UHGV virus genome: UHGV-1300783
Strand: one strand, 5' to 3'
From: a virus
DNA length: 14,040 nucleotides
In this document: in pieces, positions 2,080 to 3,288 of the stretch
How positions within the stretch are numbered: the first letter of the stretch is position 1
How the letters are laid out: the number at the start of each line of letters is the position of its first letter
Translations under genes and position numbers: made by a program
Notes under the pieces: model-generated
What the model was told of the DNA's origin: nothing
Databases searched by the model: none
What the model saw: only the letters and a program-made list of their open reading frames with translations

Positions 2080-2095
2080 CGCCTGTTATTAACCT

Positions 2096-2115
2096 GTGGG
2101 TCGTAACAGACCCAC
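2096..2115 (+). promoter_or_regulatory. perfect 7-bp stem-loop after the capsid gene (GTGGGTC-gtaaca-GACCCAC), no U-tract
   Basis: Read directly: 2096-2102 GTGGGTC, loop 2103-2108, 2109-2115 GACCCAC. It lies in the 51-nt gap between the capsid stop (2079) and the next ATG (2131). Lack of a following T-run argues for an RNA processing or stability element or partial attenuator rather than a strong intrinsic terminator. Confidence 0.45.
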
Positions 2116-2130
2116 TAATGGAGAAAGAAG

Positions 2131-2568
2131 ATGATCACCGACAAACTGTTGATGTTCTCCGAAGCACAGGCGGTAACTGATACCGCTGCTTCTACTGACG
2201 TAATCGATCTCGGTCCAATTGACGGAAAACGTCGTGATATCGGCGTGGGTTACCCGCTTGAGTTTTGGGCGCTGGTTAACACAGCCGCCGCAGCAAGCGG
2301 TGATGCAACTGTAAACATCCAGTTGCAGACGAGTGAGGATAACAGATCATGGACCACTATTTATGATAGTGGTGCACTGGCAAAGACCACCCTGACAGCA
2401 GGTAAACGAGTTGTTTCTGCAAAGGTGCCTGCCGGTGTTCAGCGATATCTGCGTGTTAACTACTCCGTCGCAACTGGCCCACTAACGGCTGGCGAATTCA
2501 CTGCTGGTATCAGTCTTGATGTTGATGCCAATACGCCGTATCCGATCCGCTCAAAAGTAACTGGTTAA
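2131..2568 (+). CDS. hypothetical virion-associated protein, 145 aa (possible minor capsid or decoration protein)
   Basis: ATG at 2131 preceded by GGAGAAAG (2120-2127). Codon usage matches neighbours. Product is guessed from position after the capsid gene only. Confidence 0.5.
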   Translation: MITDKLLMFSEAQAVTDTAASTDVIDLGPIDGKRRDIGVGYPLEFWALVNTAAAASGDATVNIQLQTSEDNRSWTTIYDSGALAKTTLTAGKRVVSAKVPAGVQRYLRVNYSVATGPLTAGEFTAGISLDVDANTPYPIRSKVTG

Positions 2569-2578
2569 GGTGATATCG

Positions 2579-2914
2579 ATGTCAGGTGAGAAACCAAGAT
2601 ACCGCGTTCTGCGCCTCTCTCATATCCATAACACTCTGTGGCCGGAGGGGGCAGAAATCGAATACGAAGGTGAGCCTGGTAGCGCACTGGAACCTGTTAA
2701 CGATGCAGCCAGACAGGCAAAAGCAAAAGTTGCAGGAAAAGTGTCAATGGCAGCAACCAGCACCAAAATCATCAACGATGTGTCAGATGATGGTGAACTG
2801 GATAAGCTCCGTGAAGAGTACGAATTGCTCTTTAACGAGAAGCCACACCATAACGCCAAAGCCGAAACGCTCCGCGAGAAGATCGCAGATAAGCGTAAAG
2901 AACTGGGCGTGTAA
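2579..2914 (+). CDS. hypothetical protein, about 111 aa
   Basis: Track ORF 2570..2914 begins at GTG; the ATG at 2579 with AAGGTGA upstream is the more likely start. Followed by a strong hairpin with T-run. Confidence 0.5.
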   Translation: MSGEKPRYRVLRLSHIHNTLWPEGAEIEYEGEPGSALEPVNDAARQAKAKVAGKVSMAATSTKIINDVSDDGELDKLREEYELLFNEKPHHNAKAETLREKIADKRKELGV

Positions 2915-2930
2915 GCCTCGCGGATCAGAC

Positions 2931-2953
2931 AAGGGGCTTCGGCCCCTTTATTG
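2931..2953 (+). terminator. Rho-independent terminator-like hairpin (AAGGGGC-ttcg-GCCCCTT followed by TTATT)
   Basis: Read directly: 7-bp perfect GC-rich stem 2931-2937 / 2942-2948 with a UUCG tetraloop, then a T-rich stretch. Located in the 50-nt gap after the ORF ending at 2914. Confidence 0.55.
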
Positions 2954-2964
2954 CAGGAGTGTAT

Positions 2965-3288
2965 ATGGAACTCGTAAACCTCAAAACCGGCACTGACAGC
3001 TACCAGGATGAGAGCGGAGAAACCAGAACTCGCGATGAATACCCGTGGGGGCTGTGCATCACTCTTAATAACGACACATTGAATAAGCTGAAGGCGCAAC
3101 CTCAGGGCGTCGGAACAGAAGTGATGATAACTGCAAAGGCTGTTATTCGAGGCCTGTCTGCCAGAGAAACTGACGATGGTGTTAATCGCAGCGCCGATCT
3201 GCAGATCACTGATATGGCAATCGCTCCTGTTTCCGGTGATGTAGAAAAATCAGCGGCTGAAACTCTGTACGGCAATGGGGGTGAGTAA
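2965..3288 (+). CDS. hypothetical protein, about 107 aa, carrying a scaffold-like C-terminal motif (KSAAETLYG)
   Basis: Track ORF 2959..3288 begins at GTG; ATG at 2965 with AGGAG at 2955-2959 is the likelier start. Its stop overlaps the next gene's start (TAATG). C-terminal peptide resembles the scaffold C-terminus (see findings). Confidence 0.55.
   Translation: MELVNLKTGTDSYQDESGETRTRDEYPWGLCITLNNDTLNKLKAQPQGVGTEVMITAKAVIRGLSARETDDGVNRSADLQITDMAIAPVSGDVEKSAAETLYGNGGE

Follow-up and report, generated by a model that had tools for sequence, protein, structure and literature searches.

The region between the major capsid gene and the first tail gene of this phage (positions 2080-3288) is most probably a conserved capsid-accessory part of an epsilon15/phiV10-type head module and not an insertion, a reading to which we assign a probability of roughly three in four. 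The window, by which we mean the whole 14,040-nucleotide stretch of DNA analyzed here, shares 98-99% nucleotide identity with the E. coli phages phiV10, TL-2011b and others; on this sequence evidence, its source is an epsilon15/phiV10-type phage or prophage of the genus Uetakevirus (epsilon15 group). As an earlier note had described, three small open reading frames (ORFs) lie between the capsid and tail tubular A genes, at 2131-2568 (145 amino acids), 2579-2914 (111 amino acids) and 2965-3288 (107 amino acids). The junctions of this + strand gene run measure -4, +8, +51, +10, +50 and then -1 or -4, and the sole gaps longer than 15 nt in the operon are indeed 2080-2130 (51 nt) and 2915-2964 (50 nt), in a survey in which a run of 100 Ns at 9276-9375 breaks a downstream gene. 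Each of the two gaps holds a hairpin. The gene block and the head-tail terminator are standard for epsilon15/phiV10-type phages, and any mild novelty in the region is confined to the hairpin in the first gap.

Gene order of the head module

The proposal that these three genes were inserted started from the T7-type order, in which the capsid gene leads straight to tail tubular protein A. T7 has no genes in the slot between the two. This premise does not apply to the window, because its head module is of the epsilon15/BPP-1 type: a protease (phrog_458) is encoded upstream of a Pfam GP7 capsid protein (1087..2079, + strand; PF20911, 495.8 bits), which we assign as a major capsid protein of the epsilon15 gp7 or BPP-1 Bbp17 type. 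Its matches in the PDB are 3J4U_A (E 3e-128), 8CJZ_Y (E 2e-87) and 3J40_A (E 6e-85). We did not find the T7-type (Autographivirales-like) arrangement of a gp10-type capsid, a gp9 scaffold, no prohead protease and a capsid gene followed by tail tubular A; T7 in turn lacks a prohead protease as well as counterparts of the cement, gp9-like and gp10-like genes of the window. Profile searches and published work limit the T7-like part to the tail and internal virion protein block (PMC4819975), so that comparison with T7 does not extend beyond the genes for the tail and the ejection proteins. The block begins with a homologue of tail tubular protein A, or adaptor (3288..3893, + strand; phrog_394, phrog_9239), and the record of its epsilon15 counterpart, gp11, carries the note 'HHpred 3j4b_A T7 tail tubular protein A'. 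Because the tail genes are T7-like by these matches and the head genes are not, the order of genes in T7 is not the standard by which to judge this region. That the T7 template is unsuited to gene order in epsilon15/BPP-1-type podophages is mainly a housekeeping result.

Two known systems share the layout of the window. In Salmonella phage epsilon15 (NC_004775; PDB 3J40), which belongs to the same genus, the order is gp7, gp8 (Bbp16-like), gp9, a terminator, gp10 and gp11. Unlike in the window, the gap between gp7 and gp8 measures 12 nt and has no hairpin, and the terminator stem is longer and is annotated as bidirectional. The head module of Bordetella phage BPP-1 (PDB 3J4U) runs from bbp17 (capsid) and bbp16 (cement) through bbp15 and a terminator to bbp14 (tail A). 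It resembles the window in its capsid family, in a cement protein of 44% identity (E 3e-26), in a GC-rich hairpin without a T-run after the capsid gene, in a small ORF after the cement gene, and in a GC-rich hairpin with a T-run ahead of the tail A gene. It differs in that its gp10-like gene, bbp20, adjoins the portal gene and not the adaptor gene. Both the capsid and the cement proteins of the window are closer to those of BPP-1 than to those of epsilon15. More broadly, the order of capsid, cement, small ORF, hairpin with T-run, gp10-like gene and adaptor is common to enterobacterial relatives, and BPP-1, the Pseudomonas phages AF and Ab31, and others share it minus the gp10-like gene at that spot. 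Among the relatives examined in the epsilon15/BPP-1 lineage, the capsid gene is always followed by the cement gene and then by the small ORF.

These comparisons bear directly on the idea that the three ORFs are an independently acquired, moron-like expression unit between capsid and tail tube A, with attenuation or processing signals of its own. The empty slot in T7 had made this attractive, as had the operon's two longest gaps, which bracket parts of the block and each contain a stable hairpin. However, the three-gene block was found in every Uetakevirus relative examined, and the cement gene and small ORF occur also in BPP-1, AF, BcepC6B, Carin1, and Vibrio and Xanthomonas phages, so that synteny already largely refutes an acquired unit. 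One of the three genes has a core structural role, its product being an essential shell component in BPP-1 (PMC3863775). GC content is flat (0.48-0.52 across positions 1-4000), without deviation in the block, and a promoter scan found no sigma-70-like promoter in 2080-2130 or 2915-2964; promoter-like sites in the whole window are fewer than in its shuffles. Nor do the hairpins enclose the three genes as a unit, as had been thought, because the second hairpin sits between the second and third genes. A promoter of its own, deviant base composition, sporadic presence in relatives and a non-structural function are the marks of a moron, and none of them applies to this block. The earlier note had itself named, as one half of the outcome that would count against it, close relatives uniformly carrying these genes with known core structural roles, and the comparison returned uniform presence of the block and such a role for one of the genes. 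We consider an acquired unit extremely improbable.

Products of the three genes

The 145-amino-acid product of the first gene (2131..2568, + strand) is, on its profile matches, a Bbp16-type jellyroll cement or decoration protein, homologous to epsilon15 gp8 and phiV10 p11. It scores 156.4 bits against Pfam PF21190 (cut-off 27.1), with residues 9-127 spanning the whole 115-position model, and it matches both 3J4U_H, the BPP-1 'cementing protein' (E 2.9e-26 over residues 1-141, 44% identity), and 8CJZ_B, a 'capsid decoration protein' whose size matches Carin1 (E 3e-21). The decoration role that had been suggested for it was therefore right in substance. The gene lies directly downstream of the Pfam GP7 (BPP-topology) capsid gene, an adjacency repeated in all relatives examined, and its Shine-Dalgarno sequence, GGAG (2120..2123, + strand), is invariant in two alignments. 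Bbp16-type proteins have been shown to be structurally identified capsid components in BPP-1, PhiXacm4-11 and Carin1, and are modelled at 1:1 in the first two: the BPP-1 protein is present 1:1 with the major capsid protein (PMC3863775), and PhiXacm4-11 has seven MCP and seven CP per asymmetric unit. The Carin1 cement protein is annotated as 'structurally identified and validated'. Apart from the epsilon15 RefSeq entry and Carin1, the phage records inspected label this gene 'hypothetical protein' (in a few cases 'major capsid protein'). Calling its product a cement protein is safe, and heads of the epsilon15/BPP-1 type have an obligatory cement gene together with small companions.

The second gene (2579..2914, + strand) encodes a small conserved protein, a homologue of epsilon15 gp9 and phiV10 p12 (phrog_590; alignment). 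Its length of 111 amino acids is counted from the ATG, and all homologues begin MSGEK. We found 253 homologues, and identity to epsilon15 gp9 is 46%. The protein consists of a conserved N-terminal stretch of about 50 amino acids, a variable linker and a conserved C-terminal helix-loop-helix. Searches of Pfam (E up to 10) and of PDB profiles gave nothing significant for it, an NCBIfam scan of the ORFs gave no match, and its AF2 model (pLDDT 61) was too poor for a fold search. Comparison with the positional equivalents in BPP-1, AF, Ab31, BcepC6B and a Vibrio phage yielded a weak profile-profile match (hhalign probability 16%); the BPP-1 equivalent, bbp15, differs in having only 68 amino acids and in lacking the C-terminal helix-loop-helix. 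By eye, the C-terminus looks like a helix-extended-helix (SAP/HeH-like) or like the coat-binding helix-turn-helix of the P22 scaffold; nothing supports either resemblance, and we make no claim for them. We also considered the Carin1 'head spike base protein' as a homologue of the 111- or 107-amino-acid ORF and rejected it, as there is no similarity.

The third gene (2965..3288, + strand) encodes a homologue of epsilon15 gp10, which belongs to the Pfam Gp10-like family (PF21628, 173.6 bits, cut-off 27) and carries the NCBI name 'capsid staple protein'. The match to epsilon15 gp10 has an E of 2e-21 for 3J40_N and of 2.6e-35 for the profile, with 43% identity. An AF2 model of the protein (pLDDT 76.7) predicts a long beta-hairpin and no jellyroll, and a structure search with this model found no neighbour of known function. 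Nowhere does the gp10-like gene sit within the capsid-cement pair: it follows the terminator here and adjoins portal or terminase genes in other lineages. Such a position appears to suit a low-copy component of the virion or neck more than a staple present in 420 copies.

This placement sets the gene apart from the original epsilon15 assignment, in which the gp10 homologue is the 420-copy staple, all three ORFs are shell or shell-associated, and the boundary at the second hairpin is unrelated to copy number. That model is embodied in chain N of PDB 3J40, in the Pfam 'Gp10-like' entry and in the NCBI names, it is still repeated by a 2025 paper, and gp10 has been detected in epsilon15 virions (PMC9207676). 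However, Hryc and Baker 2022 found that only a 130-amino-acid protein fits the staple density of epsilon15 (PMC9207676), and epsilon15 gp8, the Bbp16 homologue, has 130 amino acids. Side-chain-resolved maps of BPP-1 and PhiXacm4-11, as well as the solved Carin1 capsid (PDB 8CJZ), put the Bbp16-type protein at this place. The predicted beta-hairpin and the portal or terminase neighbourhood of the gene in other lineages also speak against gp10, and we regard the original assignment as very unlikely. The name 'capsid staple protein' is probably a propagated mis-assignment for the gp10-like family, and gene context backs the 2022 re-analysis.

The hairpin between the capsid and cement genes

The first gap opens with a semi-conserved, CGCCTGTYATTAAC-like spacer of 15-16 nt that leads from the capsid stop codon to hairpin 1 (2080..2095, + strand; alignment and sequence listing). 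Hairpin 1 follows at 2096..2115 (+ strand), identified by its fold and by position-anchored conservation. Its stem is a perfect 7 bp, as first noticed by inspection, with arms GUGGGUC and GACCCAC (2096-2102 paired with 2109-2115) around a 6-nt guaaca loop. It is also correct that no U-tract is present: what comes after the stem is UAAUGGAG in the window, relatives have UAAA, UAAC or AGAA there, and a consensus terminator scanner did not flag the hairpin. The fold has an energy of -12.4 kcal/mol, and 1 of 200 shuffles folds as well; in a 41-nt context, the z-scores are modest for both hairpins (-2.6 for hairpin 1 and -0.9 for hairpin 2).

To collect relatives of this element we searched IMG/VR with divergent cement proteins as queries; a first scan had returned 80 near-identical copies and no diversity. 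A perfect stem of at least 7 bp was anchored at the same position (SD-5, that is, 4 nt before the cement-gene Shine-Dalgarno) in 36 of 46 distinct relatives (78%), compared to 1.1% of background anchors. The relatives display 24 distinct stems, with changes on both sides at four of the seven stem positions, loops of 3-7 nt, and no common motif in stem or loop. Stepwise compensatory series are present, in which U-A passes through U.G to C-G (L134, L165, L148) and G-C through G.U to A-U (L148, L001, L120). Additionally, 83% of the hairpin 1 regions fold below the 1st percentile of coding windows. We used the position-anchored test against background because a covariance-model alignment mixed two stem registers and under-counted the pairing (77.5% paired cells). 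With anchored perfect stems in 36 of 46 relatives and 24 different stems among them, the comparison is decisive and indicates that hairpin 1 is a selected RNA structure. It is absent in epsilon15, AF and Ab31, where the gaps are 10-31 nt, and is thus dispensable in some lineages.

Hairpin 1 is most likely a generic structural element at the RNA level that would serve mRNA stabilization or translational insulation. It could act as a 3'-exonuclease barrier or processing boundary stabilizing the capsid mRNA, or as an insulator holding the cement-gene ribosome-binding site accessible. The element is reminiscent of intercistronic stem-loops that govern the stability of mRNA segments in polycistronic operons, such as the E. 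coli REP elements (e.g. malE-malF) and that of the Rhodobacter puf operon: it is stable, GC-rich, intergenic and without a U-tract, it sits just past the footprint of a ribosome terminating on a highly expressed upstream gene, and its structure is conserved while its sequence is not. It has no sequence relationship to REP, however, and an Rfam scan of 1900-3400 (E up to 1) matched no family; its fixed 4-nt distance to the next Shine-Dalgarno also separates it from REP-type stabilizers. Against a stability barrier, capsid and cement proteins are needed 1:1, a stoichiometry that does not obviously call for one.

Several other roles for hairpin 1 were considered and rejected. A stimulator of read-through or frameshifting for a capsid extension was dismissed on account of three in-frame stops between the genes and of gap lengths that differ modulo 3 among phages. 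An RNase III site would need a longer stem, and a promoter scan gave no match within the gap.

Hairpin 2 and the head/tail boundary

Hairpin 2 and its T-rich tail (2931..2953, + strand) form a predicted attenuator of the intrinsic-terminator type at the head/tail boundary, identified by fold, epsilon15 annotation and conservation. The perfect 7-bp stem that had been described, with arms AAGGGGC and GCCCCUU around a uucg loop, was confirmed (2931-2937 paired with 2942-2948). It comprises a core of GGGGC-UUCG-GCCCC (2933-2946) extended by two A-U pairs, with an energy of -12.1 kcal/mol, and none of 200 shuffles folds as well. The core has the GC-rich stem of at least 5 bp and the short loop expected of a terminator. 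The GC core is followed by UUUAUUG, a short and interrupted tract with U at five of seven positions, and by UUUUUUUC, UUUUUUG or UUUCUUG in relatives. The scanner flagged no terminator here either; the likely cause is that the 7-bp stem takes up two of the T's and leaves UAUUG after it.

In epsilon15, the RefSeq entry has a 'rho-independent terminator' at the corresponding site. More than 20 sequence variants of hairpin 2 occupy this intergenic position in relatives, with covariation in the stem: relatives have GGGGC, GGGGCC, GGGGGCC, GGAGGCC or GGGCCC, including the compensated pair GGAGGCC/GGCCTCC, and loops of UUCG, GGAU, GGUU, GAAA or UCCG. The combination of GC stem, tetraloop and T-rich tail recurs before the tail genes group-wide, with stronger T-runs in relatives, and a classic GC hairpin with a T-run precedes the tail gene in BPP-1, AF and Ab31. 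Canonical terminators with 6-8 uninterrupted T's occupy this position in L099-L112, L014, BPP-1 and AF. Taken together, the alignments show structural conservation of both hairpins across varying sequences. The suggestion that they are transcript-level signals has held up in that both are genuine and selected, and hairpin 2 is terminator-like, as had been guessed.

The literature searched holds no transcript maps for the epsilon15/phiV10-type phage group, and so we infer termination and processing from these features. Hairpin 2 is best read as an intrinsic terminator of partial efficiency. Some of the late transcripts would end there, downstream of the shell genes with their high copy number, and less mRNA would then reach the low-copy adaptor, nozzle and ejection-protein genes. 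In T7, the terminator T-phi separates the capsid gene (10) from that of tail tubular A (11) and lowers the expression of low-copy genes. Like T-phi, hairpin 2 is a stem-loop that directly follows capsid genes of high copy number and precedes tail tubular A/B and internal virion protein genes, which are homologous to those of T7 (PMC4819975), and a similar function is presumed here. Unlike hairpin 2, T-phi acts on T7 RNA polymerase; in the module seen, this phage group encodes no RNA polymerase and presumably relies on that of the host.

Many temperate phages, lambda and P22 among them, antiterminate their late operons. If late transcription were antiterminated or highly processive here as well, neither hairpin would terminate, and both would be 3'-exonuclease barriers or processing boundaries setting the half-lives of mRNA segments; in that case, hairpin 2 may be only a 3'-end stabilizer. 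This purely post-transcriptional account agrees with the missing U-tract of hairpin 1, with the interrupted tract of hairpin 2, and with the retention of structure but not of sequence. We consider it unlikely, however, because relatives carry the canonical terminators described above at the hairpin 2 position, because T-richness after the stem is itself conserved and would be needless for a pure stability element, and because the epsilon15 annotators labelled it a terminator. A protein-binding translational operator at hairpin 1, through which the capsid or cement protein would autogenously repress cement synthesis in the manner of the MS2 coat or T4 RegA operators, is very unlikely. Although operators that block the binding of ribosomes typically show such a strict spacing (here 4 nt) ahead of the Shine-Dalgarno, and the two proteins are required in equal amounts, the 24 stems and variable loops without a shared motif argue against sequence-specific recognition, and epsilon15, AF and Ab31 do without the element.

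In addition to the preferred reading of the region as a conserved part of the head module, we entertain a broader proposal, tentative and on balance doubtful, that joins both ends of the block. Here hairpin 1 would be an undescribed cis-acting RNA element of enterobacterial epsilon15/BPP-1-type phages that might actively couple or balance synthesis of the two shell proteins, for example through standby-site or processing control, and the database-wide name 'capsid staple protein' (Pfam Gp10-like) would be wrong for what is in fact a component of the portal or neck, present in few copies and expressed together with the tail genes. As a covarying structure ahead of the cement gene, hairpin 1 offers a clean, small test case for expression tuning inside a phage late operon.

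Gene order between the capsid and adaptor genes

On the plus strand, a small ORF (phrog_528, 72-368) and a prohead protease gene (phrog_458, 365-1078) precede the major capsid gene (1087-2079; Pfam PF20911 'GP7'). Three small ORFs (2131-2568, 2579-2914 and 2965-3288), homologues of the T7-like tail tubular proteins A and B (here called adaptor and nozzle, 3288-3893 and 3893-6364), and genes for internal virion or ejection proteins (6364-13697) follow. The successive junctions measure -4, +8, +51, +10 and +50 nt, then -1 or -4 nt. Exactly two gaps therefore exceed 15 nt, and the two perfect 7-bp hairpins that an earlier note described in them are present as stated, at 2096-2115 (hairpin 1) and 2931-2948 (hairpin 2).

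Bases 1000-4000 share 98-99% identity with Escherichia phages phiV10, TL-2011b, phiv142-3, ZX5 and others. Identity is 84% with Enterobacter phage Tyrion and about 77% with Salmonella phages 65FD and PAT1 and with a Klebsiella prophage. All three matches with retrieved taxonomy (phiV10, Tyrion and 65FD) belong to Uetakevirus, the epsilon15 genus, and IMG/VR holds hundreds of near-identical copies of the region. A run of 100 N's at 9276-9375 suggests that the window was taken from an assembled bacterial genome and is thus a prophage. This run breaks an internal virion protein gene, affecting the apparent ORFs 7406-9565 and 9562-10308. Because these match positions 1-619 and 663-900 of one PHROG, phrog_1044, they are a single gene of about 900-960 aa divided by the assembly gap, and the '719-aa ORF' is an artefact of a reading frame running across the N's.

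The same note had used T7-type gene order to read the three small genes as a moron-like insertion. The order capsid, cement, small ORF, hairpin with T-run, gp10-like gene and adaptor is identical in Tyrion, 65FD, BUCT554, the Klebsiella prophage, epsilon15 and phiV10, as well as in six prophages of other enterobacterial genera. Phages BPP-1, AF and Ab31 have capsid, cement, small ORF, hairpin with T-run and adaptor; BcepC6B and Shamal keep this gene order and lack the hairpin and T-run 5' of the adaptor gene. In PhiXacm4-11, two unmodelled genes separate cement (gp26) from adaptor (gp29). GC content is flat across the region (0.48-0.52), and a scan of both gaps for sigma-70-like promoters returned none. 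Likeness to T7 is limited to the tail and ejection genes, for which the T7-type order holds; it fails for the capsid, consistent with profile analyses in which the epsilon15 tail module groups with T7 and its capsid and terminase group elsewhere (PMC4819975). Because the order is conserved, GC is flat, promoters are absent and the T7 comparison is restricted to tail and ejection genes, we reject the insertion: the observation was accurate but the inserted unit was wrong. Apart from the conservation pattern of hairpin 1, all of this is already in the literature or public annotation; what remains new is the fixed-register covariation of that hairpin and a context argument on the gp10 family.

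Outside Uetakevirus, gene content 3' of the cement gene varies by lineage, since Cobetia phage Carin1 carries a larger, different gene set between cement protein and connector (3394-5493 of the compared locus, L011). Its gp40, a structurally validated 'head spike base protein', is unrelated to the window's ORFs. Elsewhere in the window, GC drops from roughly 0.50 to roughly 0.30 directly past the 1129-aa ejection-protein gene (13698-14040). There the late operon meets a convergent minus-strand ORF (13698-14036; phrog_8772, unknown function), and positions 13794-13815 form a hairpin. With its low GC and opposite strand, this stretch makes a much stronger candidate for a moron or cargo than the three-ORF region does.

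Hairpin 1 between the capsid and cement genes

Hairpin 1 (GUGGGUC-guaaca-GACCCAC, 2096-2115) is, like hairpin 2, only moderately unusual in its 41-nt context (z-scores -2.6 and -0.9). A consensus terminator scan flagged neither, and it is the comparison to relatives that makes the case for both. Of 46 distinct cement-gene upstream sequences, 36 contain a perfect 7-10 bp hairpin that ends exactly 5 nt 5' of the gene's GGAG, leaving a 4-nt spacer; across 49,680 background anchors from these loci the rate is only 1.1%. When folded, 83% of the 28-nt segments fall below the first percentile for coding windows. The relatives use 24 different stems, with pairs altered on both sides at positions 2, 3, 6 and 7; position 2 occurs as U-A, G-C, A-U and C-G. 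Close relatives capture compensation step by step, from GUGGGUC/GACCCAC through GUGGGUC/GGCCCAC (U.G) to GUGGGCC/GGCCCAC, and a stem pair likewise passes from G-C through G.U to A-U. Loop length ranges over 3-7 nt, and many loops are GNRA-like. We prefer this anchored analysis because a covariance-model alignment mixes two stem registers (77.5% paired cells; 65.9% at slide +1). Farther afield, BPP-1 and BcepC6B have a 9-bp or 8-bp GC hairpin 3' of the capsid gene, and epsilon15, AF and Ab31 have none there.

That structure is conserved and sequence is not speaks for a generic role of the RNA fold and against a sequence-specific protein operator. The stem starts 15-16 nt past the capsid stop codon, just beyond the footprint of a terminating ribosome, and, as the note had said, no U-run follows it. 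Hairpin 1 could stabilise capsid mRNA, as a barrier to 3'-exonucleases or as a processing boundary, or it could be an insulator preventing upstream sequence from pairing with the adjacent ribosome-binding site. No record examined annotates it. The spacer between stop codon and stem (2080-2095) is semi-conserved, as CGCCTGTYATTAAC or CCCCTGACTATAAC; by eye, neither it nor its equivalents in relatives contain a clear RNase E-type motif. The whole capsid-cement gap is held at 51-54 nt in relatives.

Hairpin 2 and the start of the adaptor genes

Hairpin 2 (AAGGGGC-uucg-GCCCCUU, 2931-2948) is followed by UAUUG and occupies the position of a 'rho-independent terminator' annotated between gp9 and gp10 in the epsilon15 RefSeq record. 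Directly 5' of the tail A gene, textbook versions occur in BPP-1 (GGGGGC-uucgu-GCCCCC-GCUUUUUCUUG), AF (GGCCCC-uucg-GGGGCC-UUUUUUCUUUG) and Ab31 (GGGCCC-uucg-GGGCCC-UUUUCUAUUU). Across about 110 related loci we found more than 20 variants, with stems GGGGC, GGGGCC, GGGGGCC, GGAGGCC/GGCCTCC and GGGCCC, loops UUCG, GGAU, GGUU, GAAA and UCCG, and tails ranging from UUUAUUG to UUUUUUUU. Because structure and T-richness are both conserved, the comparison points to an intrinsic terminator, in agreement with the note's terminator-like description. Literature searches for transcript data on this phage group found none. In T7, the T-phi terminator is located after gene 10; hairpin 2 is placed in parallel, past the shell genes (415-420 copies) and ahead of the adaptor and nozzle genes (12 copies). 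Since the U-tract in the window is short and interrupted, termination between these two sets of genes would be partial.

Products of the three small ORFs

The 145-aa product of ORF 2131-2568 matches Pfam PF21190 'Bbp16' (156 bits) and aligns end to end with the BPP-1 'cementing protein' (PDB 3J4U, E 2.9e-26), so the earlier guess of a decoration protein was right. It also aligns with the 130-aa 'capsid decoration protein' of 8CJZ, both chain sizes of which agree with Carin1, whose GenBank record labels gp42 'cement protein; structurally identified and validated'. The BPP-1 jellyroll protein binds capsid protein 1:1, and its deletion yields no infectious phage (PMC3863775); Xanthomonas phage PhiXacm4-11 shows the same arrangement at 3.2 Å, with seven capsid and seven cement subunits per asymmetric unit. 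The Bbp16 similarity is recorded in phiV10's own annotation, and epsilon15 gp8 is labelled 'structural protein; HHpred 3j4u_H' in RefSeq.

ORF 2579-2914 (111 aa) is a homologue of epsilon15 gp9 (46% identity) and phiV10 p12, assigned to phrog_590 (function unknown). We sought a family, a solved structure and a confident model for it and obtained none. Its 253 homologues in enterobacterial prophages conserve about 50 N-terminal residues, followed by a variable Ala/Lys-rich linker and a conserved C-terminal helix-loop-helix. In some homologues (P0153, P0154, P0162 and P0167) the linker is tandemly duplicated, with repeats such as EPLN[DE]AAKEAKAKA..., lengthening the protein to 139-165 aa with invariant N- and C-terminal modules. 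BPP-1, AF, Ab31, BcepC6B, Shamal and a Vibrio phage have a small ORF at the equivalent place 3' of the cement gene, with weak homology to ORF 2579-2914.

ORF 2965-3288 (107 aa) matches Pfam PF21628 'Gp10-like' (174 bits) and epsilon15 gp10 (PDB 3J40, chain N). NCBI and UniRef call its homologues 'capsid staple protein', a name that goes back to 2008/2013, when the epsilon15 staple density was assigned to gp10 (111 aa); the staple model recurs in a 2025 paper. Hryc and Baker found that this density is not fitted by an AlphaFold model of gp10 and is fitted by a 130-aa epsilon15 protein (PMC9207676), which we infer to be gp8 because this Bbp16 homologue is 130 aa long. In the AF2 model of ORF 2965-3288 (pLDDT 76.7), one long beta-hairpin is accompanied by a short helix and, at the N terminus, a small hairpin; there is no jellyroll, and a structure comparison returned no neighbour of known function.

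In Uetakevirus, the gp10-like gene lies 3' of the terminator and 5' of the adaptor gene. In BPP-1 (L004 1071-1400) and BcepC6B (L010 1073-1651) it is flanked by portal and protease genes; judging by how far it lies from the cement gene, Limnohabitans DC33 and one metagenomic phage share this placement. In Xanthomonas phage 10KY502B (L204 5001-5339) it lies between 508-aa and 598-aa ORFs, taken to be large terminase and portal; the record labels them all 'hypothetical protein'. It thus occupies at least three positions (by a putative terminase, by the portal and before the adaptor) in an otherwise collinear head module. The gene is never inside the capsid-cement pair in the lineages compared, and in the window the putative terminator places it transcriptionally with the tail genes. 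This context would suit a virion protein of low copy number, associated with portal or neck, better than a 420-copy staple, and such a role would agree with the 2022 re-analysis.

The block is mosaic between 1087-2568 and 2579-3288. Its capsid and cement proteins are nearer to BPP-1 (E 3e-128; 44% identity) than to epsilon15 (E 6e-85; 35% identity), whereas the gp9-like protein aligns convincingly with epsilon15 gp9 only. For the gp10-like protein, the match to epsilon15 gp10 (43%) covers nearly the full length and that to BPP-1 Bbp20 (49%) only 74%.
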